A stretch of DNA of 62,576 nt, filler included, from Candidatus Nanoarchaeia archaeon (GTDB taxonomy: Archaea; Nanobdellota; Nanobdellia; Woesearchaeales; DATDTY01): the NCBI GenBank assembly GCA_035290625.1. It is 6 parts of 6 records of this genome, joined end to end, with 100 filler letters (N's around TTAATTAATTAA, not from the genome) between each part and the next. Parts side by side here need not be neighbours in the genome. Positions count along the whole stretch, not along the records: positions 1 to 25,900 come from DATDTY010000056.1; positions 26,001 to 36,001 come from DATDTY010000060.1; positions 36,102 to 40,348 come from DATDTY010000062.1; positions 40,449 to 44,911 come from DATDTY010000063.1; positions 45,012 to 51,149 come from DATDTY010000064.1; positions 51,250 to 62,576 come from DATDTY010000069.1. One strand, 5' to 3'. Position numbers and translations under genes: made by a program. Shown here piece after piece: positions 1-61,503 of the stretch. Under the pieces are notes generated by a model, which did no database searches, had not been told where the DNA came from, and was given only the letters and a program-made list of their open reading frames with translations. Within the stretch, counting starts at the first letter, position 1. Every line of letters starts with the position of its first letter.

Positions 1-140
1 TGCCCTTTGTGAGCCTTCTATTCAAAGTACAGAACAGCGACAAAGGGGTTGCTCCATACGGGAAATGTCGCTTCCCATGAGAGTATGCACAAGGCGAAGT
101 CGGCATTGCCGAACGAAGTGAGCAACTTTTCAATGCGACC
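1..140 (+). repeat. Structured dispersed element, copy A (left end cut by window edge)
   Basis: Aligns by eye with the reverse complement of 8776-8940 (ttgtgagcc...cagcgacaa.ggggttg...aatgtcgct...gcgaa...gagcaacttttcaatgcgacc). Confidence 0.85.
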
Positions 141-192
141 GATTCTGCCGGCTTCTGGCATTCTCATCATTCAGGATGGGCACACCACGGAA

Positions 193-1605
193 CTACTGTA
201 CCCCTTCCTCTATCTCGGTCTCCTGGGAGACCTTCTCCGCAAGCCGGATCTCCTCGGTTACCCTTGTTTGCTTCCATGTGCCCTTAAGAAACCAAAAAAG
301 CCCAATGGTTGCAGAGATGACGTTGGCAATCGGAAACGCCCACCAGATCCCTGCCTCTGCCAAAGCGGTATGCCTTGAAAGGATATAGGCGAGCGGGAAC
401 TGGAACAGCCAGAGCGAGAGGAGCGATAGTATCATTGAGGATGTTGTGTTGCCGGACCCCTGGAATGCGCCGCTTACGATCTGTTGCAGGCCTATAAAAC
501 CGAAGGTTAAGGACATGATGCGGAGGAATGCTGATCCCTCTGCAACCACAAGAGGCTCCCCTGGAACAAAGGATGCAACAAGCTGAGGCGCAAAGGCAAA
601 TACGAGGCCGCCGACAATGGAGAGCACTATAAATCCAAGAAGGCCGCTTATCTTTGCTACCTCTTCGGCGCGGTTAATCTTTCCTGCCCCCATGTTCTGG
701 CCGACAAGTGTTGATGTAGCCATTGAGAATCCAAGCGCAGGGATAACAACAAAGCTGAGGATCCTCACTCCAATCCCATAAGAAGCCACAACAAGTGTCC
801 CGAAACTTGCCACCAGTACTGTCATGATTGCGAAGCCCAATGCCCGGGTCGACTGCTCGACTGAGGCAGGGAGCCCAAGCCGAAACATCTTCTTGATAAT
901 GCTCATATCAAGGGTAAGATTCTCCTTGCGCAGATGGATCCCATACCTTCCGCTCAATAAAAGCATAAGGCCTATGATGGTTGCAAGACTCTGTGTGCCG
1001 ATGGTTGCGAGAGCCGCACCCCCCACACCAAAAGCAGGAATAAATCCATACCCAAAGATGAATAGAGGATCAAGGATGAGGTTAAGCAGGACAGTGCCAA
1101 GGACGATGATAATGGGGGTTCTTACATCCCCGACTCCGCGCATCAGTGACTGGAACACAAAGAAACCAAACAGGAAAACGATTCCTAAAAAGGAGATCTT
1201 CAGGTAGGAAACAGCCATCGGCAGCACGTCGGGCTCTGTTCCCACCAATACCAGCAAAGGCCTTGCCATGAGATAGCCAACTATGCTTATGGCAAGAGAC
1301 ACCAGCAGCATTACGACAAAAGTCTGGCCTGCGATATGATCAATCGCTCTCTGATCTTTTTTTCCCTTGTAATGGCTGATAAGGACTGTACCGGAGATTG
1401 CGAGCCCGCCCCCCAAGGAAATGAGCAGAAAGAGGATAGGAAAACTCAGCGAGACTGCTGCCACTGCTTCTTTCCCCAGCCTTCCAACCCAGAATGTGTC
1501 GACCAGCTGGTAGGCTGTTTGGAGCAGATTCGCGAAAACGATTGGAACTGAAAGCGAAATAATCGATTTGACAATCGATCCTTCAGTCAGGTTAGGGGAA
1601 GCCAT
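193..1605 (-). CDS. MATE family efflux transporter
   Basis: 470 aa, ~12 hydrophobic segments; typical N-terminus LTEGSI..LSVPI...QTAYQLVDTFWVGRLG, RGVGD..TP and VGQNMGA motifs. Confidence 0.93.
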   Translation of the reverse strand: MASPNLTEGSIVKSIISLSVPIVFANLLQTAYQLVDTFWVGRLGKEAVAAVSLSFPILFLLISLGGGLAISGTVLISHYKGKKDQRAIDHIAGQTFVVMLLVSLAISIVGYLMARPLLVLVGTEPDVLPMAVSYLKISFLGIVFLFGFFVFQSLMRGVGDVRTPIIIVLGTVLLNLILDPLFIFGYGFIPAFGVGGAALATIGTQSLATIIGLMLLLSGRYGIHLRKENLTLDMSIIKKMFRLGLPASVEQSTRALGFAIMTVLVASFGTLVVASYGIGVRILSFVVIPALGFSMATSTLVGQNMGAGKINRAEEVAKISGLLGFIVLSIVGGLVFAFAPQLVASFVPGEPLVVAEGSAFLRIMSLTFGFIGLQQIVSGAFQGSGNTTSSMILSLLSLWLFQFPLAYILSRHTALAEAGIWWAFPIANVISATIGLFWFLKGTWKQTRVTEEIRLAEKVSQETEIEEGVQ

Positions 1606-1673
1606 TTGAGAGGGGCTTCTTCGGACTGTTTATAATCGTTATGAATTGGCAGAAAGACAGCCGCGCATTAAAG

Positions 1674-1878
1674 AGTTCAGTAGAAAGTGTGTGTTGCCGC
1701 CTTTTTTGCGAGGGTCAATCAAACGAGACATCAACAGCGGAGGGGGGACGTCCCTTACGGGCGAGGTGCCGCTCTTTGCTGAAAACATGAAGAGCCGAGC
1801 TGCTCCGAAGGAGCGACCAAAAATGCGAAGCATTTTTTAGCACGGCGGCAACAGCGAAGCGGAACTTTCTACTGAGCC
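1674..1878 (+). repeat. Structured dispersed element, copy B
   Basis: Terminal IR tcagtagaaagt/actttctactga, inner stem gttgccgcc/ggcggcaac; flanked by direct repeat cgcattaaagag (1664-1675, 1878-1889). Confidence 0.85.
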
Positions 1879-1893
1879 GCATTAAAGAGAATA

Positions 1894-1901
1894 TTTATAA
1901 A
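1894..1901 (+). promoter_or_regulatory. Archaeal TATA box (leaderless transcript)
   Basis: tttataaa ~23 nt before ATG 1924; the same geometry recurs at 4120 (ATG 4150) and 37393 (ATG 37423). Confidence 0.55.
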
Positions 1902-1923
1902 CATCATCTCCCTCAAGAGCTTT

Positions 1924-2520
1924 ATGCGTCACGGCATAGCACTATTCTGTATGCTTGGCATCCTGGCCATTGCAGGCTGCGCTGCTCCTGAAGACCTTTC
2001 TGGAAAGGCTCATGGCTCTGAGCAGGGAAGCCACGGAACTGATACCCTGGTCTGCAATGCCATCACAGCGAAATGCGGAGGCACAAGATCCTGGAGAAAT
2101 AATAATCCAGGGAATCTTCAGGCTTCTGTAAGCGCTGAATTCTTCTGCGGCGCCAGGATACGGACAGAAGCAACAACTGCGCGAGTCTCGCATGCGATCT
2201 TTGAAACTTACGAAGATGGATGGAATGCCCTGATCTGCGACCTCAACGCCAAGATATCCGGGATATCAACACCGCTCCGTACGAGATATGGCGAAGGATA
2301 TGAGCGTACAAGAACCTTGAGAGACCTGGTGAAGGTGTATATTGGAAGCTCATCAATAAGCAGGGTGAATGGCTACCTTGCTGCAGTCAGGCAGGCCACG
2401 GGATATGGGGCAAATACGATCATTGCTCAGCTTAATGCAACGAGGCTTGCTCCAGGAATCCAGCTTGCTGAGGGATGGATAGAAGGCCAACCACAGAGAG
2501 CACCTACTCCTTCCACTTGA
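1924..2520 (+). CDS. Putative lipoprotein with NNPGN motif (possible lysozyme-like / phage virion-protein domain)
   Basis: Signal peptide with lipobox LAIAGC; RNNNPGNL, F.TYE.G..AL, TL..L...Y and I...EG motifs. Confidence 0.6.
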   Translation: MRHGIALFCMLGILAIAGCAAPEDLSGKAHGSEQGSHGTDTLVCNAITAKCGGTRSWRNNNPGNLQASVSAEFFCGARIRTEATTARVSHAIFETYEDGWNALICDLNAKISGISTPLRTRYGEGYERTRTLRDLVKVYIGSSSISRVNGYLAAVRQATGYGANTIIAQLNATRLAPGIQLAEGWIEGQPQRAPTPST

Positions 2521-3040
2521 TCGAACAACCACCAGAAGGCTGAGGAGCAAAACCGACTTTTCCCTTGCTGAGAAGATTCTTCAATGCCTCTTCGAGTTCA
2601 TGCTTGGTTGCGCTGTAAGGAGCCTCTAAGTTGTCATCAATCCTTCCCCTATATACGAGTTTTCCGGCCTTAAATACGTAGAGGTCAGGAGTGCATTTTG
2701 CATGGAATGCTCTCGCAGCATCCTGGGGCTCATCATAGAGGTAGGGAAAAGCAAGCCTATTCTTTTTTGCAAATTCCTGCATTGCTTCAAAGCTGTCGTC
2801 AGGAAACAGTTCAGCGTCATTTGAGTTGATTGCAACAACATCAACATCCTTCCTGAATTTCTTTTCAATCTCAATCAGTTTCGGCCAGGCAGCTTTTGCA
2901 TACGGGCAATGGTTGCAGGTAAAGACTATCAGCTGCAGCTTTTTCTTCAGTTTTTTGGAATCAATTATTGATCCATCTGCAGCAGGCAGAGTAAACGCAG
3001 GCATTGAATCGTTAACATCTAACCCTCCTTTTGCCATCAT
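2504..3040 (-). CDS. Thioredoxin-family (AhpC/TSA-like) protein
   Basis: FTCNHCPY, AINSND, FPYLYDE, CTPD, YRGRIDD and C-terminal GCSIKW. Confidence 0.92.
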   Translation of the reverse strand: MMAKGGLDVNDSMPAFTLPAADGSIIDSKKLKKKLQLIVFTCNHCPYAKAAWPKLIEIEKKFRKDVDVVAINSNDAELFPDDSFEAMQEFAKKNRLAFPYLYDEPQDAARAFHAKCTPDLYVFKAGKLVYRGRIDDNLEAPYSATKHELEEALKNLLSKGKVGFAPQPSGGCSIKWKE

Positions 3041-3344
3041 GAATGCAATAAAAATCACCTCTTCTGCAGGATTCTTTCCTGCCCTTTTTATTCTTTGCGA
3101 TGGGATTTTGTCTTGCGTAAAATATAGAACTGATGAAAGGGAGGGAAAGCTAATAAAATTTAGGTTACTACGATGCTAGAACTCCAGTCGCAGTATGAAG
3201 TAAACTCCCGCCCTTAACTAAAGCGGAAGAACTTAGTAATCGTAGATAAGTTGTAAATTCTTCCTTATATATCAAACGAAAAAACATACGAAAATTTACT
3301 TCGTTTGCTATAAATGTAAAAAAGATAGGCTGGAATCTCAAACG

Positions 3345-4031
3345 TTACTTTGAAATCTCTGGCAGTTTTTCCAAAACGTACTGAGACCTCTCTTCAAAAT
3401 GTTTTGCAACATTTTCAAACGGATTCTTAACATTCTCCAAAACATATATCGTGGAACCCAAGATTGCAAAACCGCCAAATACCGCAGGTAATACTTTAAG
3501 CCCTAAGTCTTGGAAAGCATAATTGGCGCCACTATCAATTAGTTCTTGAAGTCCTGCAAGACCAGCAATTCCCAAACCTACCCCAATAGCAACGCTTGTT
3601 GCAATCGCTGCATTTCTTATTTTTCTTGCAATTCCGGGATTACTATAGATATTCCCGTTACACTGCCAAAGAATCCCTTGTTTAACTGCCCTAAGTGGGC
3701 GATCGTCGTGAGAACTGTAAGTTCTGGTGTTGCCAGACCAAATATCTTTCCCGAAAATTTCAGCAAGAGAATCCAGATTTGATATTTTCTCTTGACCCCA
3801 GTACTCTGAAAGTCTATGGTATTGAATTGTGCTTCCTCGTCTTACCTCTTTCTCAACTTCTCGTAGGTCTGAGGCAAGCGCCTTTGCTCTTTCTCGTAAA
3901 GACGGCAGTTCTTCTCTGAACTGTTCCAATGTTTGCTCTAAATATATTCTTCGTGCTCTTCGTGAATCCGAGCACCGTTTACAATGTTCTTTGTCTCTTT
4001 CTATATCTATGATAGCGTTGTAAAGTGTCAT
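3345..4031 (-). CDS. Hypothetical membrane protein (coiled coil plus two C-terminal TM helices)
   Basis: Long ORF; likely start MTLYNA at 4031; divergent from trmB. Confidence 0.7.
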   Translation of the reverse strand: MTLYNAIIDIERDKEHCKRCSDSRRARRIYLEQTLEQFREELPSLRERAKALASDLREVEKEVRRGSTIQYHRLSEYWGQEKISNLDSLAEIFGKDIWSGNTRTYSSHDDRPLRAVKQGILWQCNGNIYSNPGIARKIRNAAIATSVAIGVGLGIAGLAGLQELIDSGANYAFQDLGLKVLPAVFGGFAILGSTIYVLENVKNPFENVAKHFEERSQYVLEKLPEISK

Positions 4032-4087
4032 TTTTCTCACCTTCTGATTGTTATACCAAAGGGGTAACACAATACCTATATTAATAT

Positions 4088-4110
4088 TTGTTGTAATTTT
4101 GTGACAACAA
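4088..4110. promoter_or_regulatory. Inverted repeat between divergent TATA boxes, candidate TrmB operator
   Basis: ttgttgt-N9-acaacaa immediately upstream of gaaaggtttataaa. Confidence 0.45.
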
Positions 4111-4149
4111 TTAGAAAGGTTTATAAACAATCTCAATACCCCCTAAGGT

Positions 4150-4899
4150 ATGACTGATATAACTGCCACCTTACATAGATTAGGGCTTGAAGAACAGGAA
4201 GTTAAAACGTATCTTGCTCTTTTGGACTTGGGAGAGTCTCCTGCTGCGAAATTAGCCGAAAGAACGGGGTTAGGCAGGGTGCATATGTACCAGATTGTCA
4301 ATAGACTGATTGGAAGAGGCCTGGCTTCTTATATACTCAAAAACAACGTCAAATATTTCTCCGCATCAGATCCTGGAACTCTCCTTACAGATATCCAACA
4401 AAAAGCGCAGGATTTGAAAAAGATTCTTCCTGAACTTAAAGCGAGGCAAAAAAGATTAATTCCAGAAACAAAAGTTGAAATTTACCGCGGCAGAGAGGGA
4501 ATACATACAATTCTCAAGATGATTCTCAAAGATGAAAAGGCATATTTTATTCTTGGCGGAGCACAAGAGGCATGTTCTATCTTTGAATTAGAGAATACTG
4601 TCTTTGTTAAACATGCAGAAAAACTAAAATTGCCTGGAAAGATACTAGGAAGAAAAAAGGATGAATTCTTTATAGGAAAGAATGAAGAGTATCGGTTTAT
4701 TCCAGAGCATTTGATATCCTCAACGACGATGATGGTATGGCATGATAAAACTGCAATCTTTGTATGGTCAGAGCCGTACTATGCGATACTTATAGAGAAT
4801 GAGGGAATAACAAAAACGAATTTAGCTACATTTAGGTATTTATGGAGCATTGCAGAAAAGCCAGGGAAAGACGATAGAAAGAAGAGGCTCCTGACCTAA
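4150..4899 (+). CDS. TrmB-family transcriptional regulator
   Basis: LGL...EVKTYLALL.LG wHTH, L...GL, VEIYRG.EGI effector domain. Confidence 0.9.
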   Translation: MTDITATLHRLGLEEQEVKTYLALLDLGESPAAKLAERTGLGRVHMYQIVNRLIGRGLASYILKNNVKYFSASDPGTLLTDIQQKAQDLKKILPELKARQKRLIPETKVEIYRGREGIHTILKMILKDEKAYFILGGAQEACSIFELENTVFVKHAEKLKLPGKILGRKKDEFFIGKNEEYRFIPEHLISSTTMMVWHDKTAIFVWSEPYYAILIENEGITKTNLATFRYLWSIAEKPGKDDRKKRLLT

Positions 4900-5162: not shown

Positions 5163-5206
5163 GGAAAATGGAGAATGCTGACGCTTTATAAAACTTTAGA
5201 TGCCAA

Positions 5207-5360
5207 ATGGCGTTCAAAATCTTGCGGGTTGCCGCCGGCTCGGCTCTGGCTGTTCACGGAAAGGAGCGGTTCCCTCCCGGATGGAGCCTCCCCTTCCGCT
5301 GCGCATCCTATGTTGATTGAGCCTCGCGGAATTGGCGGCAACCTTCATTTTGAACGCCAT
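5207..5360 (-). repeat. Structured dispersed element, copy C
   Basis: 14-bp terminal IR atggcgttcaaaat/attttgaacgccat; core homologous to copies B and G. Confidence 0.85.
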
Positions 5361-5381
5361 GCAAAGTAAGAGAGTAAGAAT

Positions 5382-5960: not shown

Positions 5961-6109
5961 AGATTAACGATAGTTAATAGGAGGTATTTAAAGGTTGCGG
6001 AAAACGCGCAGTTTAGTCTTCATATCTGCTGGACCTAAAGTTTCAGCGAAAGAGCCGTCTGACCAAATGCTTGGATTGCCTACATCTTTTCTATCAAGTG
6101 TTTTTTGGG

Positions 6110-8729: not shown

Positions 8730-8775
8730 CCGAATATAAAAGAGGCTATTTGATATATAAATGTTCTTCCGTTTC

Positions 8776-8940
8776 GGTCGCATTGAAAAGTTGCTCGCTT
8801 CGCTCGGCAGCGCCAAGTTCGCTATGCACAAGTCAGGCAGAGTAGCGACATTCCCCGGATGGGACAACCCCCTTGTCGCTGTGCCGCCGCTCCGTTATAA
8901 TGGCTCACAAGAGGGCGCTGCATGACTTTTCAATGCCACC
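8776..8940 (-). repeat. Structured dispersed element, copy D
   Basis: IR ggtcgcattgaaaagt/acttttcaatgccacc directly flanked by 8-bp direct repeat tccgtttc (8768-8775, 8941-8948). Confidence 0.88.
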
Positions 8941-9048
8941 TCCGTTTCATAAGGATTGAAGAAAGAATGTCGTTGCACTTTACTCTCTCAAATTGCCGAA
9001 TTCCGAGTCGGCTGCCCACTCCGGTAGGTTCGCCGGAGCCTCCCAGTT

Positions 9049-26000: not shown

Positions 26001-26088
26001 GACTTCGACTGCCTGATGATATGCTTCCTCTGTGAGGTCCATGGACGAAGATTTGCCAGTACTGCTATTTAAATTCTTGCTTTGAGAA

Positions 26089-26342
26089 GCTCGGTAGAAG
26101 ATGGCGATGGCGGCCATTTGTGAGCCCCTGAAGCCAAGGACACAATAACGACAAGGGGGTTGCCACAATCAAAACGCCGTCGGGCGTTTTGGTGTGCCAA
26201 AAGAGCGTAGCTCTTTTTAGCACCTTCGGGGAATGTCGCTTAACACTCAAAACAACACTGGGCGAAGTTTGCGGCAGCCGGTGGCTTGTTAGCGAGTGAG
26301 AACGAGCTCACTCGCAAGCCACAGCGAGATTTCACCGGAGCC
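26089..26342 (+). repeat. Structured dispersed element, copy E (with nested hairpin insertions)
   Basis: tttgtgagcc, cgacaagggggttg, gaatgtcg, ggcgaa and gatttcaccggagc shared with copies A/D/F. Confidence 0.8.
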
Positions 26343-29273: not shown

Positions 29274-30119
29274 ATGGCGTATGTGAAGGCGAAGCCTGTT
29301 TTGGTTAGTGGTATCTTTGTGCTTGCTGCGTCTTCTGTCTCTGCTGTTCAAATCCTTGGAGAGGAATATCCTCTGCTTATCCTGTTGCCGATCCCGATTA
29401 TCGTTCTCATGATGCTCATCTTTGCTGTGCTTCTCATCCGTGACCTCTTCCGCAAACGATCGCCTAAGAAACCGGAACTGCGGCCTCTGGCTGGGGCTCC
29501 TCCAAAGCGATGGCACGGTTTCAGGACATTGTTCCGTAAGCCTTCGGGAAGCATCCCTGAGCTCAGGCATCTTGAATCATACGAACACGCACTTGAGATT
29601 ATTGATGAACTTGAGCAGGATCTTGCTTATACTGATTCTTACACAGTCTTTGAGAGGCTTATCCAAACCATCAGGAGATTTTTTGCAGACTACCTCAACA
29701 TCAATTATGAATTCACGTATGAGGAACTTGAGCAGGAATTGGCAAAGAACAACAAGGACATCATCTTTTTTTCAAAAAATCTTTCCAAGCTCCAGTACAG
29801 CCAGGATGGATATTCCAAAAATGAGCTTCGCGGCCTTATTGGAGAATTTCGGTCCATCATCATGAAGCTTGCTGACCGCAAACGATCCCAGCTTAAAGGC
29901 ATATTTAAATCTGAGGCAGACCACCATGAAAAGGTCAAGAAAATCGACGATTTGCTGGCCAAGGGGCGGCAAACCCTCCAGGACAATCCAAGGGAAGCAG
30001 TTGGAGTCTATCGTGATATCTATACTGCCTACCAGAACCTCGCTTCATCGGAGAAACAGATTGTTGGGCAGCGGATTCGGGCATTTTATTCTGATCTTCA
30101 GCAGCATCTGAAAGGGTAA
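29274..30119 (+). CDS. Hypothetical membrane-anchored protein
   Basis: Signal/TM N-terminus and helical C-terminus. Confidence 0.7.
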   Translation: MAYVKAKPVLVSGIFVLAASSVSAVQILGEEYPLLILLPIPIIVLMMLIFAVLLIRDLFRKRSPKKPELRPLAGAPPKRWHGFRTLFRKPSGSIPELRHLESYEHALEIIDELEQDLAYTDSYTVFERLIQTIRRFFADYLNINYEFTYEELEQELAKNNKDIIFFSKNLSKLQYSQDGYSKNELRGLIGEFRSIIMKLADRKRSQLKGIFKSEADHHEKVKKIDDLLAKGRQTLQDNPREAVGVYRDIYTAYQNLASSEKQIVGQRIRAFYSDLQQHLKG

Positions 30120-48458: not shown

Positions 48459-49526
48459 TTAGCTTATTTCTGGAGCATGCTTGGGCGCAGGAAGCTTTCG
48501 AAGGCCGTACTTACGCAGCCTCTCTCTGACACTTTTTCTGCTTGTCTTTAGAATCCTGGCCATCTCAGAAAGATTGCCTTGGGTTTCTGTATACAGGCAC
48601 GTGTATAATTCTTGCTCAACAAGACCAACAACATTGGGGCGGGTTTGAGACTGCGCTGCAGCTTTCAGCACTGCTGCAATAGCATCTTCAAGGCATGGTG
48701 GAACCGGAGTAGCAAGCCAAGGGAAATCTTTTTTGGTTAGGTCTTGTCTGTCGGAAGGCGCAGCAAAAACAGCACTCTTTATCGTGTGCTGCAGCTCACG
48801 CACATTTCCCCTGACAAACCCATAGTCCTGAAAAAGAGCATACGCGGAATCTGAAAAGGCCAGGTCGTGATACTGCAGCGCCTTCCTGATTTTGGTGTTA
48901 TAGATCGTCAAAAAGAAGTCTGCAAGAAGGCAGATATCACCAGGCCGATCCTTCAGTAGAGGAAGATGAATCCTATTTTGATTGAGCCGGAGATAGAAGC
49001 CCTCATCCAAGCTTCCAGACCCAATCTCGATTTCAGGATGCTCCGGAAGAGCTGCTATGACCCGGGCATCCACGCTGTTAGAGGCAACAGACCCAAGCCG
49101 CCGCGTTGCCTTCCCGTCTAAAAAAGAGAGGAGCGACCACTGGATCTCTTTTGGGAGATGATGCGGAAAAGGAATGTAGAGTGTTCCCTTACAGGCATAC
49201 TCAATCATGCCCCTGGTGGCCGATTTTGATCCGGCAAAATTGGTATGCACATGCCCAAAGATATCATTCTCTGGCGCTTCAGGCCCGATCAGAACAAATG
49301 GTGTGCTAACTCCTCGAGAGGAATTTGAGGCGTGATGGATGTACTTCGCAGCAAGATCCTTTCCAGTGCCGCTTGCTCCCATAAGCAGGAGGGAAATATC
49401 TAACCGAGATGCCCGCTCTAAGAGGCCTAACACATGCTGCATTACAGGGCTGATTCCATAGATCCTTCTCTCATTGCCCTTATGATTGATCTCTTCAGTA
49501 AACGAAATGTATGTTTTTTGTTCCAT
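48459..49526 (-). CDS. Degenerate sigma-54 activator-like AAA+ protein with Fis-type HTH
   Basis: G.SGTGKD..A..IH, FGH, VDARVIAA, FY.RLN, P.L.DR..DI, GNVREL, GN.S..ARIL..SR. Confidence 0.85.
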   Translation of the reverse strand: MEQKTYISFTEEINHKGNERRIYGISPVMQHVLGLLERASRLDISLLLMGASGTGKDLAAKYIHHASNSSRGVSTPFVLIGPEAPENDIFGHVHTNFAGSKSATRGMIEYACKGTLYIPFPHHLPKEIQWSLLSFLDGKATRRLGSVASNSVDARVIAALPEHPEIEIGSGSLDEGFYLRLNQNRIHLPLLKDRPGDICLLADFFLTIYNTKIRKALQYHDLAFSDSAYALFQDYGFVRGNVRELQHTIKSAVFAAPSDRQDLTKKDFPWLATPVPPCLEDAIAAVLKAAAQSQTRPNVVGLVEQELYTCLYTETQGNLSEMARILKTSRKSVRERLRKYGLRKLPAPKHAPEIS

Positions 49527-49649
49527 CGGATACGCATGCGAGAGGTTCCGGACAGGGGTTTCCCCAGCTTTAAAAAGGTTACCCCTTGGCAGTTGAGTCA
49601 GGCTGGCAGCGTAATGCTTTTTAAAGAAATGCAGCTTTTTCTCAGCTAC

Positions 49650-49742
49650 GCTCCTGTGGTCTAGTGGACAGGATACAACCCTGCGGATCAGCCATGATGC
49701 AGTTGAAAGGTTGCGGCCCGGGTTCAAATCCCGGCAGGAGCG
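49650..49742 (+). tRNA. tRNA-Arg(GCG) with ~21-nt intron at the canonical 37/38 position
   Basis: Acceptor GCTCCTG/CAGGAGC, anticodon stem CAACC/GGTTG with loop CT-GCG-G, T arm CCGGG-TTCAAAT-CCCGG. Confidence 0.9.
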
Positions 49743-51128: not shown

Positions 51129-51149
51129 GGTCTCTGGTGAAAATCCCGC
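51129..51149 (-). repeat. End of a further structured element (copy I) cut by gap
   Basis: Reverse complement gcgggattttcaccagag matches the right ends of copies F and H. Confidence 0.5.
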
Positions 51150-55235: not shown

Positions 55236-55401
55236 GGCTCCGGTGAAAATCAATGCTGCCGCCCTTTGTGAGCAACAGGGCAAGAACAATAACCTCGACC
55301 TCGGGGGGATGCCCCTTACGGGGCGAATGTCGATTTGGTGAAGGATTTTTCAGCCATTGCGAACTCCGCGGCAGCTGCGAAGCAAGATTTTCACCGGAGC
55401 C
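55236..55401 (+). repeat. Structured dispersed element, copy F
   Basis: Perfect 16-bp IR ggctccggtgaaaatc/gattttcaccggagcc flanked by ggaatat(t/g) direct repeat. Confidence 0.88.
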
Positions 55402-55461
55402 GGAATATGAAAAGAACAGTGAAACACACCCTGGAGCAAGCCCTGGAAGATCGGATCCCAG

Positions 55462-56403
55462 TCAACTCACTGCGCCGACTCCAGCCCGAAATGCGGCAAA
55501 CATGGCAAGGCAGGCACCAGCAATGAATGGAAAATAGAGCAGCCCTGACAGGACTTTTCCTTCCTTGATGACCCCGATCAGGGATGCAGAAAGAAGGGAG
55601 GTAACGACAAGCAGGATGACAGATGCCATTGTAAGGAATTCAGGAGTGATGGCTATGCTTCCAAATATGTCGCTTCGCTGCTGCATATCCGCCATGATCC
55701 CTACAAAGCGGATGGAAACTGCCAAGAGCATCGGTGCTCCTACAATGACGGTGAAGAGGATGAACATAGTATAGGTCTTTGTTGTTGTCACCAAATCCTT
55801 TTTGAGCATCTGCAGCTCAGAGAGGTCCTGGCTAAGATTCTCCAGGAGATCAGCAAGATGGGCTCCAGATCGCATTGCCGTAGTGAAGAGCCGCAGCGCC
55901 CGGTCAAGCATTTCAGACTTCACATGATTCCTGATGCTCAGCAGGCTTTCCTCAAAGGACTCAGTTCCAAGGCTGCGCTCTATCGCCTGTTCAATCTCCT
56001 CTTTTAGTATTCCAAACTCGGTTCTGTTGGAAGCTCGCAGCGCCTGGAATGGTGTCATTCCGGAGCGGAGGTTTGATGCAATCATTTGTATGCAATCCGG
56101 CAAAACACGCTCAACCTGTTTCCTTCGTGATTCTATCTTAAAATAGAGCAGGAGATACGCCATGAACTGGGCAAATAGAAACACGAAAGCAGCAGCGATA
56201 CCTGCATACGGCTGATGCAGAAGGCGAACAATGGCGAATGCCGCAAGCCCTGCAGCCAAGGCCGTAGTTATCCATCCTCCAAGATACTGCTCAGGCGATG
56301 TCGCTTTGCCTGCATAGCGAAGCTTCGTTGCAGTTGCCTTTCTGATGCCTTCAGGGATCATGCCGCCTAAACTCCGGTAGAATCTTATACTGTATCCTTT
56401 CAT
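55462..56403 (-). CDS. Type IV pilus/T2SS F (TadC/FlaJ-like) membrane platform
   Basis: LPD...MASN.RSG, FG.L..E, SG..LA.LL and multiple TMs. Confidence 0.88.
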   Translation of the reverse strand: MKGYSIRFYRSLGGMIPEGIRKATATKLRYAGKATSPEQYLGGWITTALAAGLAAFAIVRLLHQPYAGIAAAFVFLFAQFMAYLLLYFKIESRRKQVERVLPDCIQMIASNLRSGMTPFQALRASNRTEFGILKEEIEQAIERSLGTESFEESLLSIRNHVKSEMLDRALRLFTTAMRSGAHLADLLENLSQDLSELQMLKKDLVTTTKTYTMFILFTVIVGAPMLLAVSIRFVGIMADMQQRSDIFGSIAITPEFLTMASVILLVVTSLLSASLIGVIKEGKVLSGLLYFPFIAGACLAMFAAFRAGVGAVS

Positions 56404-57236
56404 ATCGTTACTACAGGCCTCCGTGACTTGACAAAACCGATCAGGACAATCTGGATGATGAATGTGGCTGCAAGGAAAACAATGAATGCCGATTCTGACA
56501 TTCCATAGCCGGCAAATCCTGAAAGGATAACGAGCAGCGTCGCTCCAATGCTTGGAATTGCAACTGCAAAGAGCATATACAGCAGAGACCAGAGGCTTAA
56601 TTCCCTTCCATAATCCTGTATTTTCCTTTTTTGGTCCTGGGTGAGCTCTTTAATAATCGATTTCAGGGATCCCTCAATGCTCGCCCCGGCTTTGATCGTG
56701 CTCACAAGCTGCCAGATGGTCTTTCTCAGAAACGCTGACCTTGACTGGGCTCCCTGCTTCTCGAGCGCCTTTTCAAGAGGCAGGCCTGCGTTAACATGCC
56801 GAGTGATTGCTTCAAACTCTTTTGAGGCCTGGCCATAGCCAGACTGGCTGATATTTTGTACTGCTGTGAAGAGCGGAATTCCAGAACTGACCTGCAATGT
56901 GAGGTCCTTCAGGCCGAAGATAAGGTGCTTTTCAATCTGCTCAGCCTTCTTGCCCGCCTGGATCTTGGGGGAGATCAGCATTGCCGCAAGCAATACAGCG
57001 GAAATGATCAATGCAAAACCGGCAAGCTGCAACAGGGGCTTTTTTGTCGGCAAGAATATGAGGAAAAAAAGAAGGCCATAGAGTGCGCCATGCAGCAGGC
57101 TAGACGCGAGAAACTCAACCTCATCACCCTCTACATCTTCCCTGAAATACGGGATGAGCTGGCTCATCTTCGCGGCAAGCGGCCTGAAGGGCTTTGAAAG
57201 GCTAGCATCAATCTTTTTTGGAAGAATGAACATCAT
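56400..57236 (-). CDS. Type IV pilus/T2SS F membrane platform
   Basis: SG.PL, YG..S.EF, G...E.AL and multiple TMs. Confidence 0.88.
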   Translation of the reverse strand: MMFILPKKIDASLSKPFRPLAAKMSQLIPYFREDVEGDEVEFLASSLLHGALYGLLFFLIFLPTKKPLLQLAGFALIISAVLLAAMLISPKIQAGKKAEQIEKHLIFGLKDLTLQVSSGIPLFTAVQNISQSGYGQASKEFEAITRHVNAGLPLEKALEKQGAQSRSAFLRKTIWQLVSTIKAGASIEGSLKSIIKELTQDQKRKIQDYGRELSLWSLLYMLFAVAIPSIGATLLVILSGFAGYGMSESAFIVFLAATFIIQIVLIGFVKSRRPVVTI

Positions 57237-58699
57237 AGGATATCCTTGATTTTCTTTTTCTTCTCTGCTGCCTGGTATATGCTCAGCGGATCCTTGTAAT
57301 AGATGCGCATAAGCCTTCCGACATCATCGATCTCCTTGACATTGTTGGCAGCCATCCACTGGAGAATGACTTGTTTCTGTCTTCGGTCTTCTTCAATCTC
57401 TTTTGGCGTCATCCCGGTATGGAGGTTCAGCTCCTCCTGGATCCTGATGCTCTCATTCACCTTCTCAAAGGAATCGCCCCTGGCGCGCCATCTGTAGAGG
57501 TGGTTAAGCTCGATCTTGCCCTCATTCCCCAGGACCTCCGCGACTTCAAGTACTCTCCTCACCCCTTTCCTCCTGTCACGGTATTGCACGACAACAAGGT
57601 GGAGCGCTTCAAGCTCTGCTGAAGGGATAGCCATAGGGGGCTCAGTCAGCCTGCGCCTGACCTGCTCTGCAGTGTCTGCATGCATTGTAGCATAGACGCT
57701 ATGGCCGGTGTGCATTGCCTCAAACAGCGACTCTGCCTGGCGCTTTCTGCGTATCTCTCCCACAATAATCCTGTCAGGCCTCATCCTCAGAGACGCAACC
57801 ATCAGGTCCAGCATCGTCACCTCTCCCATCCCTTCAGGGTTCCTGTTCCTGCTGGAGAGGGGAATCCAGTTCCAAACCAGCTCATTTGGAAGCCTGATCT
57901 CCCGGGTGTCCTCAATGCTGATAATCCTCTGGGACGCAGGCAGGAAACTGCAGATGGAGTTAAGCATCGAGGTCTTGCCAGATGCAGTTCCGCCTGCAAT
58001 CAGGATATTCAGCTCATACTGCATCGCCTGCCAAAGCAGGCTGGCAATCTCTGGAGAAAGCGTCTTTGCCTCTATGAAGTGGACAGGGGTCCAGGGGTTC
58101 CTCGCAAACCTCCGTATTGTAATTGTGTTTTCCTGTGAAACAGGGAAGAGTGTTGCAGCAACCCGGTCGCCTGTTTCGAGATGCGCATCCATGATAGGCT
58201 GAAGGGAATTGATCTCTCTGCCTGCTTTTCTTCCGATCTGGCTGGCAATATTGTATATTTCCTCTTCTGAACCAAATGTCTTGGTTGTCTTGCACCAGCC
58301 GTACTTCTTATGGTAGACAGAGATCGGCTGCTTTGAGCCATTGATGCTGATCTCCTCAAGCCAGTTATCTTTCATCAGGATCTCAAGGAACCCGAGCCCG
58401 AGCATCCTGTGCAGAAGCATTCCTGCCAGAATCTTGATCTCTGATTCCTTCTGGCCAGGAAGCCTCCTTGTAAGTGCTTCCATAGCTTCCTTCAGAAACG
58501 TCTCCTTTTGCATGCTGCCCATCAGCGGAATCTTTGGGCTAAGCTCCTCAGAAAGGTGGTTAAGCAGCGCCTCAGTCCCCTTGTCAAGCTCAGGCATGAT
58601 GATCTCGTACTGCGGGACAAGCTGGAGGCTTACAGAGACGATGCTGATAGTTGCAGGCACAGAATCTGCCGTTACTTTGTAGGTTTCGAGGATTGCCAT
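57233..58699 (-). CDS. Type IV pilus assembly ATPase (CpaF/VirB11 family)
   Basis: GGTASGKTS, SIEDTRE, LRMRPDRIIVGE.R, TGH...T.HA. Confidence 0.95.
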   Translation of the reverse strand: MAILETYKVTADSVPATISIVSVSLQLVPQYEIIMPELDKGTEALLNHLSEELSPKIPLMGSMQKETFLKEAMEALTRRLPGQKESEIKILAGMLLHRMLGLGFLEILMKDNWLEEISINGSKQPISVYHKKYGWCKTTKTFGSEEEIYNIASQIGRKAGREINSLQPIMDAHLETGDRVAATLFPVSQENTITIRRFARNPWTPVHFIEAKTLSPEIASLLWQAMQYELNILIAGGTASGKTSMLNSICSFLPASQRIISIEDTREIRLPNELVWNWIPLSSRNRNPEGMGEVTMLDLMVASLRMRPDRIIVGEIRRKRQAESLFEAMHTGHSVYATMHADTAEQVRRRLTEPPMAIPSAELEALHLVVVQYRDRRKGVRRVLEVAEVLGNEGKIELNHLYRWRARGDSFEKVNESIRIQEELNLHTGMTPKEIEEDRRQKQVILQWMAANNVKEIDDVGRLMRIYYKDPLSIYQAAEKKKKIKDIL

Positions 58700-58706
58700 G
58701 GTGCGT

Positions 58707-59144
58707 TTACTTGCCCCGCCTTATGGTTGCGCCAAATGGAGAATAGCTGATATCAATGAGGCCCTGCTCCTTGAGGACTCCAAGCGCTGCATCGAGCTGC
58801 TCGGCCTGCAGCCCAGTCTTCTCCGAAAGCTCTTTTTCTTGCGCTGGCTTTGTTCGAATTGCCTCTAAAATACTGTCATAGACAGTCATGATCTGGTTTG
58901 GAGACAGCGGCTTAGCCGGAATCCGAGATTCTGGCCGCTCTTTCTGGATTACCATTTCTGCTGTATTGTCACCATAATGTATAAGGACGTAATGCAGGAA
59001 ATAGAGAGAGAAGAAGGAAACTGCCAATCCCAGGCCAAGGACAAGCCATTGCTCCCCAAGAAACCCGTAGACGAACGATATCATGCCTACAGCAAAAATG
59101 GCATTGGCAACAGCCTTGAGCGCCTGAATCCTTGAAATAAGCAT
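58707..59144 (-). CDS. Membrane protein with C-terminal winged helix
   Basis: Two N-terminal TMs; EL...TG.....L...L..L...GLI. Confidence 0.65.
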   Translation of the reverse strand: MLISRIQALKAVANAIFAVGMISFVYGFLGEQWLVLGLGLAVSFFSLYFLHYVLIHYGDNTAEMVIQKERPESRIPAKPLSPNQIMTVYDSILEAIRTKPAQEKELSEKTGLQAEQLDAALGVLKEQGLIDISYSPFGATIRRGK

Positions 59145-59216
59145 CACCCCTCGCACTCTCCCTAGGTTTCAGGTTTAAAAGCGTTTCGATTGTGTTGAGT
59201 AAAGTTATTACCTTCC

Positions 59217-59371
59217 GCTTTTTGCAAAGGGAAGGGTGCCGCCAATTTTGCGAGACTCAATCACGCAAAGATGAGCAGCGGAAGGGGACGCTCCCTCGGG
59301 AAGGTGCCGCGCTTCTCTGAAAACATCCAGAGACGAGTCGGCGGCACCCCGACAAAGCCTTTGCAAAAAGC
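59217..59371 (+). repeat. Structured dispersed element, copy G
   Basis: IR gctttttgcaaagg/cctttgcaaaaagc; gggtgccgcc/ggcggcaccc; core like copies B and C. Confidence 0.85.
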
Positions 59372-59382
59372 ACTTGGGAAGT

Positions 59383-59649
59383 TCAGTATACAGATTGCAT
59401 GGCTCGGGTGAAAATGAGGCCAGACTTGCGAGGCTCAAGCGGCAGCCCACTTATTGCCTCATATCCACCTATCGCTGAACTGAAAGTCAAATACATCAGC
59501 AGACTTCTGGGTGATATATTGAATTTGCCGCTCAAAGAGCTTCCGGATTGTTTCAAGACTGACGTCATTTGGGTCCATGGTGTTGCCTCCTGAGTGCTGG
59601 AACCTTTGAGCTCCAGCGACTCAATGCTGCTTATTAGGAAGAACTTCAT
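59383..59649 (-). CDS. Hypothetical protein
   Basis: 88 aa with a GGAGG RBS. Confidence 0.45.
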   Translation of the reverse strand: MKFFLISSIESLELKGSSTQEATPWTQMTSVLKQSGSSLSGKFNISPRSLLMYLTFSSAIGGYEAISGLPLEPRKSGLIFTRAMQSVY

Positions 59650-59882
59650 TTAAATAGCTCCTCCGAGGTTGTCCAGTGGGGAGTGCAGCTTAATCCACTT
59701 TGGTAAAGAAGATTGCACAGGTTAAATCCGGGATTGGCTAATCTGCCGCAGCCTGCGCCAGAGTCCTGCCGATTCAGAAGGCTCGGTACATGATATCCTA
59801 TTCTATATACCCTATATATTTTATATATTTTATTAGGGAAATGTATATAAATCGTACTTTAACTCTACTTAAGAGTAATAAA

Positions 59883-60041
59883 ATGGTAAAACTATCCACA
59901 ATAACCACCCACGAGGATGCCGTAGATCTGGCGAGGGTTTACTGTATCATGAATAAGGTGACCATGAAGGATTTTGTTGCAGATGTGCTGAAAAAAGAGC
60001 TGAAGGAATTTAAGGAATCACTGAAGAAATTTTCTTATTAG
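59883..60041 (+). CDS. Small ribbon-helix-helix-like protein
   Basis: 52 aa, beta-alpha-alpha pattern, TATA upstream. Confidence 0.55.
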   Translation: MVKLSTITTHEDAVDLARVYCIMNKVTMKDFVADVLKKELKEFKESLKKFSY

Positions 60042-60074
60042 CCCATTAAAGGCATTCTTAACTGCTTATGTTTC

Positions 60075-60620
60075 TTATGATACCATTAAACCGCCTTTTT
60101 TATAATCCCTCGGATTACCCCGAAAAAGATGGAATGCCTCCTGCGCCTCGTGATTAAGCATAATGATAGAAGGTATATCTGCGAGTTGAGAAAGGTCAAG
60201 GTCAAGGGCGGAAGGATGGTTGAGAGGTTTTTCTGCAGGGAGGTGTAGCAGTCCCATTAGGATCCTCCAAGATGAGCTGTGAAGCGGGGGGGGGAAGGCA
60301 CGGATGCTCTTGCAAGCCATGCGCCGCCTCTTCTAGGCATGATATTTATCCCTTTTCCTGTGCCCCGGAGCAAAACATCAATCACACCAAACTCAGAGGT
60401 GTAGCAGAGATAGTCAGGATATCCAATGTTTAGGTCTCCGATATTGACCTGATCCAAGATCTTTCCTTTCCTGACGATACACATATTGTTGTCAGTATTA
60501 GAAGAAAGAGAATCAACAACTAACGGAAGCCTCGCAAACGGAGGATTGTTCAGCACTTTATTCTTCACATCATCATCAACAAAGTAGACCTGCTCTGCAG
60601 AAGGCTTTGTACCTTCTTTT
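60075..60620 (-). CDS. Two TAATG-coupled hypothetical ORFs (60075-60257 and 60257-~60620; upstream one probably 5'-damaged)
   Basis: GGAGG before ATG at 60257; the upstream frame lacks an ATG. Confidence 0.35.
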
Positions 60621-60632
60621 CATGTATTTGGA

Positions 60633-60896
60633 TTAATAAGCTCTTGATCTCTTATCAATTCTTATAATTACTATAAGAGCCTGAGAAGCATCTACATAAT
60701 ACAGTATCCGATAATCTCCTGCTCTGACTCTAAATACTTTATCTTCTTTGTATTCTTCAACTCTTACGGCATCAGAAGGAAAAGGATTTTCTTTGAGTTT
60801 CTCTATTTTTCCTAACAGCCTTCTGGCCAATGTTTTATCTTTAATCTTTTCTATGAATTTGCTCGCAGGCTTTTCTAACCTGAGAGAAGAAGGCAT
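60633..60896 (-). CDS. relE: RelE/ParE family toxin
   Basis: L.ENPFP, FRVRAGDYRILY, IDKRSRAY. Confidence 0.92.
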   Translation of the reverse strand: MPSSLRLEKPASKFIEKIKDKTLARRLLGKIEKLKENPFPSDAVRVEEYKEDKVFRVRAGDYRILYYVDASQALIVIIRIDKRSRAY

Positions 60897-61103
60897 CTAT
60901 ACCCCCATTTTCTTCTTGAGATCCTCTAATGTGATCATATCTGTAAAGTCCCCTTTTCTAGCCTTCCTTATCGTTTCGTCCACTAATCCCCTTTCAGAAG
61001 GGGATAGCTTTGCATCGTCATTAAGCCAACCCTTTATCGTAAGAATCTCTTTCTTTATAAAATCCAAGTCTTCATGAATCTTCTTTAAGGTTATCGTTTC
61101 CAT
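60897..61103 (-). CDS. Antitoxin paired with RelE
   Basis: 68 aa directly upstream of relE; C-terminal LEDLKKKMG. Confidence 0.75.
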   Translation of the reverse strand: METITLKKIHEDLDFIKKEILTIKGWLNDDAKLSPSERGLVDETIRKARKGDFTDMITLEDLKKKMGV

Positions 61104-61169
61104 AGCGAACTACTAAAAGAAGCTACGGTTTATATACATTTGCTTTAAGAAGAAGCAGGTATGTGAATC

Positions 61170-61298
61170 TTACCTATACGCTTCCCAACCCTCAACACTG
61201 CTTGTCCTCAAGCTCTGGAGAAATGCCATGGTTTCTGTATCTTCGGGATTCCTAGCCTGGAAGTCTTCGATAAATACAAGAAGGTCTTGCTGGGTGGG
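61170..61298 (-). pseudogene. Orphan C-terminal gene fragment ending GWEAYR, abutting element H
   Basis: PTQQDLLVFIEDFQARNPEDTETMAFLQSLRTSSVEGWEAYR; homologous to 62068-62292. Confidence 0.5.
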
Positions 61299-61503
61299 GC
61301 TTGCTGAGAATCCCGGTTGCTGCCCTTTTGCGAGGCTCTTAAGGAGTAGTATGAGCTGAGTTGAAGGGGTCGTCCCTTACGGGGGTTCAACGATACATGC
61401 AGAGGGGCAGCACAAGCCGAGCTGCTCCGAAGGAGCGACCAAAAATGAAAAAGCATTTTTGAGTACTGACGGCAGCTGCGAAGCGGGATTTTCACAGCCG
61501 AGC
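61298..61503 (+). repeat. Structured dispersed element, copy H
   Basis: tttgcgagg, gggg..gtcccttacggg; 33-nt identity with copy B (61415-61447 vs 1793-1825). Confidence 0.8.

Follow-up and report, generated by a model that had tools for sequence, protein, structure and literature searches.

Rod-shaped elements at promoter edges of an archaeal genome, probably a family of non-autonomous DNA transposons

The covarying rod-shaped elements dispersed through this archaeal genome are probably MITEs (non-autonomous DNA transposons) that insert beside promoters and keep a six-helix fold while their sequences diverge. The earlier note had suggested a structured transposition substrate, which comes close: terminal inverted repeats and target duplications of 8 or 9 bp bound these MITEs, and their pairing, that between the two ends included, is kept by compensation along lineages. 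It had also been unable to place them in a known family; no described family was found, and a comparison with Rfam returned no family matching the element, but they are of a known kind, MITEs with IS903-like ends.

The family is large, old and diverse. In a genome of 1.37 Mb, ~150 copies account for 1.7% of the DNA, with nhmmer yielding 152 matches at E<1e-5, spread over 54 of the 84 contigs, and a covariance model 154 matches at E<=1e-5. The 120 full copies of this single genome fall into 73 scaffold clusters, and many copies are truncated or interrupted. The family is also present elsewhere in the order, in 22 of 61 genomes (G000 counted), each from a different family.

Window copies and their ends

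The window, meaning the whole stretch of 62,576 nucleotides that was analysed, consists of several contigs with N linkers between them. The host is a tiny groundwater archaeon of the DPANN type. Run over the window, a covariance model trained on 45 copies from the genome gave exactly the eight copies listed in the earlier note, and a gap-cut end noticed near 51129 proved to be real, with a left terminal repeat at ~51133-51149 that reaches the N linker. The copies and their surroundings are as follows.

1..140, +: copy A, 88.9 bits, model positions 25-161; 5' part lost at the contig start
1665..1673 (left) and 1879-1887 (right): 9-bp target-site duplication of copy B, gcattaaag
1674..1878, +: copy B, 60.5 bits; long form
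1801-1843: extra two-hairpin module of copy B
1894..1901, +: TATA box of copy B, tttataaa, 6 nt past the right duplication and 30 nt ahead of the ATG at 1924
5193-5186, -: TATA-like ttttataa of copy C, 5 nt past the presumed, decayed duplication
5206..5361, -: copy C, 106 bits
8754..8761, -: TATA box of copy D, tttatata, 6 nt past the duplication
8768..8775 and 8941-8948: exact 8-bp target duplication of copy D, gaaacgga on the - strand
8776..8940, -: copy D, 136 bits; GGT-type ends
26066-26073, -: TATA box of copy E, TTTAAATA, 7 nt outside the presumed duplication
26088..26342, +: copy E, 40.8 bits
~26157-26215: extra hairpins of copy E, ~55 nt, within the apical loop
51133..51149, +: left terminal repeat of the cut copy; N linker from 51150
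55236..55401, +: copy F, 117.6 bits; anatomical reference
59216..59372, +: copy G, 98 bits
61298..61503, +: copy H, 49.4 bits (model span 61298-61499); long form with decayed terminal repeats
~61423-61466: extra module of copy H

The outer stem of the first reading consists of terminal inverted repeats 16 nt long, GG[C/T]N5TGAAAA. Among 142 fully flanked copies, 100 are well bounded, their terminal repeats agreeing at 12 or more of the 16 positions, and 51 of these 100 are flanked by target-site duplications where ~1 would be expected. An exact flanking 8-mer repeat is present in 31 and a repeat with one mismatch in a further 20, compared with 0.1 and 0.94 per 100, respectively, in a control with mismatched flanks. 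Duplication length follows the type of end, being 8 bp in all ten GGT-type copies and 9 bp in seven of nine GGC-type copies. The repeat variant of the cut copy is also present elsewhere in the genome list, and the flanks of copy F (ggaatatt and ggaatatg) are identical at seven of eight positions. No empty-site allele was seen.

The rod fold and its open strands

The anatomy is given for copy F.

55236..55251, +: left terminal inverted repeat, GGCTCCGGTGAAAATC, 5' arm of helix 1
55386-55401: right terminal repeat
55255..55263, +: GC stem, 5' arm; 3' arm at 55368-55375
55268..55275, +: tandem-G.A helix, 5' arm; 3' arm at 55357-55364
55270-55271 facing 55361-55362: G.A/A.G mismatches
55276..55294, +: 5' variable strand (L5)
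55295..55333, +: inner stem through the apical hairpin region
55295-55299 with 55329-55333: inner stem arms
55303-55308: G-run bulge
55311-55324: apical hairpin
55334..55356, +: 3' variable strand (L3)
55377..55383, +: GCGAAGC mini-hairpin, with the GC stem before it and the right terminal repeat after it

Support for the six-helix rod is strong. Across 45 copies the architecture described earlier holds (outer stem, GC stem, tandem-G.A helix, inner stem and apical hairpin), with the GAA mini-hairpin as an additional helix. In this set 91.4% of cells are paired, against 33.0-42.3% if the partners are displaced by 1-3 columns, and the stems do vary with pairing preserved, as had been claimed, 36 of 44 pairs having changed on both sides. 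The changes are compensatory at eight of the nine pairs of helix 2 (the GC stem), and both pairs of helix 6 (the GAA mini-hairpin) covary. The covariation score is 0.459 versus 0.064-0.084 and was reached by 0 of 500 shuffles, a significance that overstates independence because the copies share descent. An alignment of 147 distinct copies, itself fitted to the model, gives the same picture. Among the features noted before, the tandem G.A is near-invariant, its four positions being G in 143, A in 147, G in 143 and A in 144 of the 147 copies. G.T exceeds A.C in the inner helices by only 144 to 101, and nearest-neighbour models fold the top and bottom strands about equally well.

Two variable strands are indeed present, but at mostly 17-19 nt (L5) and 17-18 nt (L3) they are shorter than the ~18-22 nt first read, because the G.A helix is 2-3 pairs longer. 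They differ among all eight window copies, but not in every copy, as the genome has identical ones in other places; those of copy A are found in at least three other genome copies. The strands are length-constrained, fast-diverging and recombining.

Insertion at the promoter edge

The duplicated target sits on the upstream BRE edge of a leaderless promoter, ~6 nt ahead of the TATA box, and the element may point in either orientation. A match to TTTAWATA at seven or more of eight positions occurs 0-14 nt outside the duplication in 27 of the 51 duplication-confirmed copies, compared with 3.3% of random genome positions; in 24 of the 51 a strict TATA match within 14 nt is absent. The spacer between duplication and TATA box has its mode at 6 nt (13 cases), followed by 7 nt (five), and the box is on the right only in 13 copies, on the left only in 13 and on both sides in one. 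Beyond 24 of the 28 TATA sides is an ORF of at least 60 aa, its distance from the TATA start being most commonly 30-34 nt. Another five genomes from the order contribute 27 copies and 16 TATA sides with a mode of 7 nt, at a boundary accuracy of ~1 nt. Within the window, the spacing of copies F and G to TATA is not canonical. The same target is struck repeatedly, giving tandem arrays in which one 8-bp target is repeated three times.

What maintains the fold, and which enzyme moves the element

Double changes exceed the expectation under independence (8 vs 2.1, 76 vs 19.1 and 1140 vs 336.5), an excess of 3-4 fold at every distance, and copy pairs that are 95-99% alike in their stems contain 62 pair-breaking single differences. 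Compensation builds up along lineages whereas copies decay once inserted, which suggests that mobility requires the fold. Intramolecular pairing of one strand, as hairpin or cruciform DNA or possibly as a transcript, would be needed for a copy to stay mobile, perhaps because it draws the two ends of the 160-bp element close to each other. If pairing is needed for continued transposition, active lineages rather than resident copies would be under selection. We know of no DDE transposon that needs a folded single strand.

There is some small chance that the fold is instead held by host selection, the element acting in cis as RNA or DNA, such as a hairpin insulator, a terminator or a 3'-UTR stabiliser. 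Its place is stereotyped, with the upstream gene on one side and the next gene's BRE/TATA on the other; whichever way it is read, the terminal repeat on the exit side holds a T4 run; and structured bacterial MITEs have been reported to affect mRNA, which counts for a role of this kind. However, the pair-breaking differences between near-identical copies show that resident copies decay, many copies are truncated or interrupted, and orientation relative to the promoter is random. The tandem arrays suit repeated targeting more than function, and the duplications and diversity show ongoing mobility.

It is more doubtful still that no single strand folds, the helices being subterminal inverted protein-binding sites on double-stranded DNA at both ends and the variable strands the spacers between them. 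Multipartite binding sites typically have spacers of fixed length and free sequence, and the gap between terminal repeat and GC stem is unequal at the two ends (3 nt vs 10-17 nt), as in asymmetric transposon ends. Yet the 73 scaffold variants in one genome would demand equally many co-evolved proteins, so sequence-specific recognition cannot account for the stems, and compensatory change between the arms would not be expected of protein sites. Moreover, three features pair in a strand-specific way: the invariant GA facing GA, which would read TC on the opposite strand, the apical hairpin and the local GAA mini-hairpin.

The earlier idea of a guide-like RNA, a transcript whose two loop strands pair with programmable targets in the manner of an IS110 bridge RNA or H/ACA pockets, is not supported and is highly improbable: neither in the MITE-masked genome nor at a copy's own insertion site do the strands match better than controls. 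For 116 L5 and 126 L3 strands, the best matches in the masked genome follow the shuffled distribution, and the few perfect 17-18-nt matches are unmasked family copies, judging by their paired positions and spacing. The longest match to a copy's own empty site is no better than to the sites of other copies (5.39 vs 5.43 and 5.47 vs 5.37), and copies with identical strands have unrelated duplications and different targets. What speaks for guides is the conserved strand length of 17-19 nt, the wholesale exchange of strands between scaffolds otherwise at least 95% identical, with L5/L3 combinations recombining, and RNA-like motifs (tandem G.A, GAA triloop, UUCG-like apical loops). Against them, terminal repeats and duplications indicate a DDE mechanism, no IS110 or TnpB genes were found in the genome, and orientation relative to the adjacent promoter is random (13:13). 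The elements share with the IS110 bridge RNA the folding of a mobile element's non-coding part and the presence of two internal loops, but differ in lacking loop-target or loop-donor complementarity, in having terminal repeats and duplications, and in residing in a genome without a detected IS110 transposase. As parts of a MITE, the strands would be internal-loop spacers that recombination between elements reshuffles.

The repeat tips and the 9-bp duplication make the IS903 group of the IS5 family the most likely supplier of a transposase, an assignment drawn from end similarity and duplication length only. The repeat tip of a relative, GGCTTTGTTGAA, matches the initial 12 nt of IS903B's inverted repeat exactly, and PMC10569121 prints that repeat with its 9-bp duplication. 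Like IS903-group MITEs, the elements are small, non-coding and dispersed, with inverted repeats of ~16 nt starting GGC and, in the GGC type, a 9-bp duplication; unlike them, they have a conserved covarying interior fold and a fixed distance to TATA boxes. The IS903-like genes of the order carry other ends, however, and the GGT-type elements duplicate 8 bp, a poor fit to IS903. IS6/IS26 elements, abundant in archaea, share the 8-bp duplications, GG tips and related short repeats with a 'caaa' motif, as described in PMC7986276, but the 9-bp subfamily does not fit them.

The statement that the window holds no cognate enzyme stands, and none was found elsewhere. An autonomous element with these ends was not found in the element's own genome, nor was an autonomous partner found in one scan of a genome collection, one metagenome scan and two scans of viral sequences. 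Among 201 genomes of the order (G000 counted), IS903-like genes occur in 6, ISL3-like in 10, IS1595-like in one and IS6-like in 37; no autonomous element with these ends was found among them. As candidate partners, the IS6-type element of this genome (C49:1-915) has unrelated ends, GGTTAAGTCAAC, and IS6 elements across the order showed MITE ends in 0 of 30 loci and five further regions. The genome's Y1 genes are part of a distinct IS200-like element.

Correia, ERIC, RUP and REPIN-like elements of bacteria are likewise intergenic, ~150 nt long and bounded by inverted repeats, and form long imperfect hairpins; REPINs are moved by HUH (RAYT) enzymes without duplications. The present family differs from structured bacterial MITEs in being archaeal, in its asymmetric six-helix form, which has two open strands of fixed length and an invariant tandem G.A, and in its promoter-edge targeting. 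For the targeting, the eukaryotic LTR retroelement Ty3, which integrates at Pol III genes, and other elements that insert beside TBP-containing initiation complexes offer an analogy of mechanism only: promoter distance is near-fixed, the gene is spared and the same site is struck repeatedly. Here, in contrast, a DNA transposon inserts at an archaeal BRE/TATA, and tethering by TBP/TFB would be the corresponding step.

A DDE transposase acting in trans would move the elements, reading the promoter, either as BRE/TATA sequence or as bent DNA bound by TBP/TFB, as a ruler. Such a ruler would give the family a safe place to insert in a gene-dense genome.

Abundance and fold of the repeat family

The rod-shaped elements described in the earlier note are real, abundant and unusually structured MITEs with a precise promoter-edge target. 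All eight copies in the window (A-H, from A at 1-140 to H at 61298-61503) and a linker-cut end near 51133-51149 are found in place when the sequence is read. The source genome, GCA_035290625.1 (G000), comprises 1.37 Mb in 84 contigs, several of which, joined by N linkers, form the window; genes of the window are archaeal in look (RtcB, ATP-dependent DNA ligase, type IV-like ATPase). An HMM built from the eight window copies yields 177 matches in the genome at E<1, and 152 at E<1e-5 distributed over 54 of the 84 contigs. The latter have a median length of 154 nt and sum to 1.7% of the genome DNA; 26 matches lie within 300 nt of a contig end. The search of the genome and related MAGs proposed earlier thus returns about 150 copies in G000. 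Of 61 genomes sampled from the order Woesearchaeales, each from a different family, 22 contain the repeats (G000 included).

As is typical of MITEs, the copies are short and dispersed with no transposase gene inside, and the fold occupies the whole length of the element. That MITEs can be dense in a Woesearchaea genome has been published: a prokaryotic MITE survey gives 105 MITEs per Mb for one such genome (PMC11602168). Full-text literature searches, which covered main texts, returned no description of the fold or of archaeal promoter-edge targeting, and a term search of the Minerva preprint (10.64898/2026.09.22.753630) gave no mention of MITEs.

For alignment A1, 49 copies of 145-172 nt were taken from 100 well-bounded copies and four with wrong bounds were dropped, leaving 45. 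The structure consists of six helices: a terminal helix, a GC stem, a G.A helix formed by seven Watson-Crick pairs around a tandem G.A, an inner stem, an apical hairpin and a mini-hairpin on the 3' side (NN-GAA-N'N'). The fold is real. Paired cells amount to 91.4% in A1 as against 33.0-42.3% when partners are slid by 1-3 columns, both sides change in 36 of 44 pairs, and the covariation score of 0.459 (0.064-0.084 in controls) is reached by none of 500 shuffles. A covariance model built from A1, as the earlier note had suggested, recovers all eight window copies and gives 154 copies in the window and 58 further genome stretches. In the best 150 of these 154 (147 distinct), paired cells reach 91.6% versus 37.4-43.2% and compensatory changes occur in 40 of 43 pairs, figures that overstate independence because the copies are related to one another and the 147-copy alignment was fitted to the covariance model.

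Conservation is highest at the G.A/A.G pair (143, 147, 143 and 144 of 147 copies). That a single strand folds is suggested by three features, namely the invariant GA opposite GA, the hairpin with its GAA triloop, and the G-run. A weak bias toward the top strand is seen in the inner helices (144 G.T versus 101 A.C), and the minimum free energies of top and bottom strands are ~1 kcal/mol apart (RNA p=0.057, DNA p=0.016). The 20 runs listed as containing this DNA include no RNA run, which carries no information about expression. A K-turn was rejected by reading, as there is no 3-nt bulge and the tandem G.A is flanked on both sides by Watson-Crick pairs.

Comparison with Rfam leaves the MITE copies without a family: at gathering score the window matches only a tRNA, and at E<=10 no match falls on a copy (best GA-cis, 18.1 bits against a gathering score of 34.7). 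This tRNA and one weaker match lie outside the copies.

49650-49742: tRNA match, 93 nt against a 71-position model, a span that suggests an intron; overlapped by a sigma-54-activator-like ORF (48459-49727, - strand)
29414-29467, - strand: weak resemblance to a C/D-box sRNA (sR38; E 0.87, 21.7 bits where the gathering score is 50)

Some copies carry additional hairpins.

1801-1843 (copy B): optional two-hairpin module, 3' side, between G.A helix and GC stem
about 61423-61466 (copy H): the same module
about 26157-26215 (copy E): ~55 extra nt in the apical loop, two GC hairpins with A and T run flanks

The optional module is ~45 nt long, with hairpins GCTCC-GAAG-GAGC and AAAAATGC-GAA-GCATTTTT, the first of which is seen in 20 of the 150 copies aligned. 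Its presence explains the size class of 190-210 nt. The extra hairpins of copy E (aaaacgcc..ggcgtttt and aaaagagc..gctctttt) could represent either a small palindromic element nested in the copy or a terminator-like module that works in both directions. Outside the window, at G000:C67:300-760, two further small palindromic modules split the 5' variable strand of a copy, which suggests that further miniature repeat families nest in the MITEs.

Among near-identical copies (95-99% in stems), 102 single-sided changes are found, 62 of them pair-breaking; therefore, resident copies decay. Double changes nevertheless exceed the expectation under independence at every distance (8 versus 2.1, 76 versus 19.1 and 1140 versus 336.5). 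Together, decay of residents and this excess can be read as selection on lineages that keep transposing. Pairing, also between the two ends, would be required for mobility. The dozens of scaffold variants in one genome argue against sequence-specific protein sites as the constraint.

Transposon ends and promoter-edge targets

What had been described as the outer stem is a terminal inverted repeat with the consensus GG[C/T]N5T[G/C]AAAA[T/G][C/T]. As expected of MITEs, the repeats match at 12 or more of 16 positions in 100 of the 142 copies with full flanks. With fixed bounds, 23 of the 100 well-bounded copies are flanked by direct repeats that agree exactly over 7-10 nt, whereas left flanks compared with the right flanks of other copies never give 7 nt or more. 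Allowing 2 nt of slack at the bounds, an exact 8-mer is found in 31 of 100 and a one-mismatch repeat in 20 more (control, 0.1 and 0.94 per 100). The length of the target-site duplication follows the type of end, being 8 bp in 10 of 10 GGT-type and 9 bp in seven of nine GGC-type copies.

Possible sources of the ends are the IS903 group (IS5 family) and the IS6 family. The tip of a MITE copy from a related genome (GGCTTTGTTGAA) is identical at 12/12 positions to the start of the IS903B inverted repeat, which is printed with its 9-bp duplication in PMC10569121. The repeats of G000 align with GGCTTTGTTGAATAAATC of IS903 at a mean score of 4.07 versus 1.89 when shuffled, though shuffles also attain the maximum of 9. 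A duplication of 9 bp, as in the IS903 group, is seen in seven of nine GGC-type copies and not in the GGT-type copies, where it is 8 bp. The IS6 family, as described in PMC7986276, has an 8-bp duplication, GG tips and cTGTt/caaa repeat motifs. The GGT-type MITEs agree with it in duplication length and GG tips; the repeat motif was compared with the MITE ends by eye only. REP/REPIN (RAYT-mobilised) and IS200/IS605 elements are moved by HUH Y1 enzymes that act on hairpins, and insert without a duplication; the duplications at MITE copies do not agree with such membership. Integron attC sites have R''/L''-L'/R' core sites and a single orientation in a cassette array beside intI, whereas the MITE copies, by reading, are found on either strand, with duplications at their bounds and freely variable stems.

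Promoter proximity was assessed in 51 duplication-confirmed copies as a match of at least 7/8 to TTTAWATA located 0-14 nt outside the duplication. Such a match is present beside 27 of the 51, compared with 3.3% of random genome positions, with the box to the right of 13 copies, to the left of another 13, and to either side of one. The most frequent spacer is 6 nt (13 copies), followed by 7 nt (5 copies), and several 7-nt spacers turn into 6 once 9-bp duplications are properly counted. Beyond 24 of 28 TATA sides there is an ORF of at least 60 aa within 120 nt, with the start codon most frequently 30-34 nt from the TATA start, as expected of leaderless archaeal promoters. Copies F and G fall outside the spacing pattern; the other placements in the window are as follows.

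Copy B: TATA 6 nt from the duplication, ATG 30 nt on
Copy C: TATA at 5 nt
Copy D: TATA at 6 nt
Copy E: TATA at 7 nt
Copy H: TATA at about 3 nt, bounds uncertain

In four arrays an identical target recurs between neighbouring copies; in one, CCTTTTCC occurs three times with a TATA box 6 nt off on both sides. Thus, a site remains a target once occupied, and the ruler measures from the side of the promoter. At L030:12423-12805 (a locus of G000:C43), divergent TATA boxes 20 nt apart (6 + 8 + 6) share one 8-bp target that has been struck twice, and this could be a natural test case for target measurement. Five other genomes of the order contribute 16 TATA sides among 27 analysable copies, with a mode of 7 and bounds good to ~1 nt, and clean duplications such as ATTTTTAG, TAGGAAAT and ATAGAGAA.

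Logan contigs of four DNA runs end at MITE copies or run through them, and none contains a joint that skips copies F, G or H. A 6-kb joint from 55263 to 61327, which links two copies via shared repeat sequence, is best read as an assembly join. In four metagenome runs, depth spikes accompanied by numerous loose contig ends mark other DNA outside the MITEs that is repeated or widely shared, one stretch being inside a secretion-ATPase-like gene.

about 57630-57960: depth spike
about 60275-60605: depth spike
about 60940-61270: depth spike

Variable strands of the internal loop

In most copies the 5' variable strand (L5) is 17-19 nt and the 3' strand (L3) 17-18 nt long. Across 45 copy pairs with stems at least 95% identical, identity is no more than 73% for L5 and 78% for L3. 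Strands differ by being replaced as a whole, and L5 and L3 recombine: a single scaffold, for instance, is seen with (a,x), (b,x), (b,y) and (c,y). Among the 120 full copies there are 73 scaffold clusters, 71 L5 types and 72 L3 types.

The earlier note had considered a structured transposition substrate or a guide-like RNA with programmable loop strands. The guide proposal is not supported by the search of these strands against the MITE-masked genome, where the best matches follow the shuffled distribution; the few exceptional matches have paired positions that resemble unmasked MITE copies. Nor do the strands match their own copy's empty site over a greater length than the sites of other copies (longest matches 5.39 versus 5.43 and 5.47 versus 5.37), and copies sharing identical strands occupy unrelated targets. 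The loops of an IS110 bridge RNA pair with target and donor beside a gene for the IS110 (DEDD) transposase, whereas the MITE loops have no excess complementarity and the genome lacks PF01548. Archaeal H/ACA sRNAs combine an ACA box 3' of the lower stem, a K-turn or K-loop and a pseudouridylation pocket; such an identity was rejected, there being no Rfam match and, by reading, neither a 3-nt bulge at the tandem G.A nor a conserved ACA after it.

Candidate enzymes and the proposed role of the rod

No autonomous partner with MITE ends was found in G000, in 201 genomes of the order or in four collection scans. MAGs often lack IS copies. The transposase tallies used five families, and the 201 genomes include G000, in which the following genes were located.

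G000:C61 (locus L001), 271-1821: 516-aa IS4-like DDE transposase on a 2.3-kb contig, the single PF01609 match, with unrelated ends
G000:C49:1-915 (L423), contig start: IS6-family element of ~915 bp, the single PF13610 match, ends GGTTAAGTCAAC / GTTGACTTAACC
G000:C46:22216-22563, C18:70-417 and C49:16170-16517: IS200-like Y1 genes, with pieces on C41, C54, C40, C72 and C39

The IS6 transposase has 277 aa and a zinc-ribbon-like N-terminus. The Y1 (HUH) genes, with six matches in G000, belong to separate IS of ~0.63 kb that do not match the MITE model; they are of two types, one within the ~0.63-kb element, which is present at five or more sites, several of them contig ends. G000 gave no match to PF13586 or PF13737 and has neither PF01548 (IS110) nor a TnpB gene. 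Of the proteins that the earlier note proposed to look for, IS110 is thereby absent from G000; none of the IS4-like gene, the IS6-like element and the IS200-like element (HUH) is tied to the family.

Across the order, matches occur in 6 (PF13737), 10 (PF01610), 1 (PF12762) and 37 (PF13610) of the 201 genomes, the last tally counting the unpublished genome G131, on which no other claim depends. The five MITE-rich genomes hold three PF01609 matches, all in one genome. None of the fetched transposase loci carries MITE ends: neither a DDE_Tnp_1_5 or DDE_Tnp_1 gene between IS903-like MITE ends nor a DDE_Tnp_IS240 (IS6) gene between MITE ends was found, and the PF13737 genes of the 6/201 genomes have other ends.

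Among the matches listed in a 16-mer scan of genome contigs, most are chance; at six loci (L085, L094, L098, L105, L142 and L146), also among the matches listed and all in MAGs titled Woesearchaeota or Nanoarchaeota, the match sits at a contig end or ~120-140 nt away from one. Among the 21 loci of a 20-mer metagenome scan, four contain the MITE (three full, one partial); of the other 17, four that were read are the same unrelated coding sequence and 13 are without a MITE match. Two viral scans gave 180 loci, none related to the family.

A more far-reaching possibility, which we consider improbable, is that the rod is a working single-stranded transposition cofactor (folded DNA or transcript) that assembles the transposase, with the promoter-bound TBP/TFB complex as the landing ruler. 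The invariant G.A helix, the G-run and the mini-hairpin would then be protein contacts. If true, this would amount to structure-dependent, transcription-factor-tethered DDE transposition in Archaea. Less probable still is a variant in which the exchangeable strands of 18 nt would pair with targets in foreign DNA, viral or plasmid.

For the reading as promoter-edge MITEs, there are practical consequences: ~150 copies break MAG assemblies, the elements can be mistaken for structured RNA genes, and the promoter marked by each copy is an aid to annotation. For uncultured lineages, the targeting is a natural means of probing archaeal promoter architecture, and it is an archaeal parallel to promoter-tethered integration in eukaryotes. 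If this reading holds, a DNA transposon family across a DPANN order would depend for its spread on an intramolecular fold, a requirement that, if proven, would be unusual for a DDE element, and would choose, almost to the single base, the upstream edge of BRE/TATA promoters.
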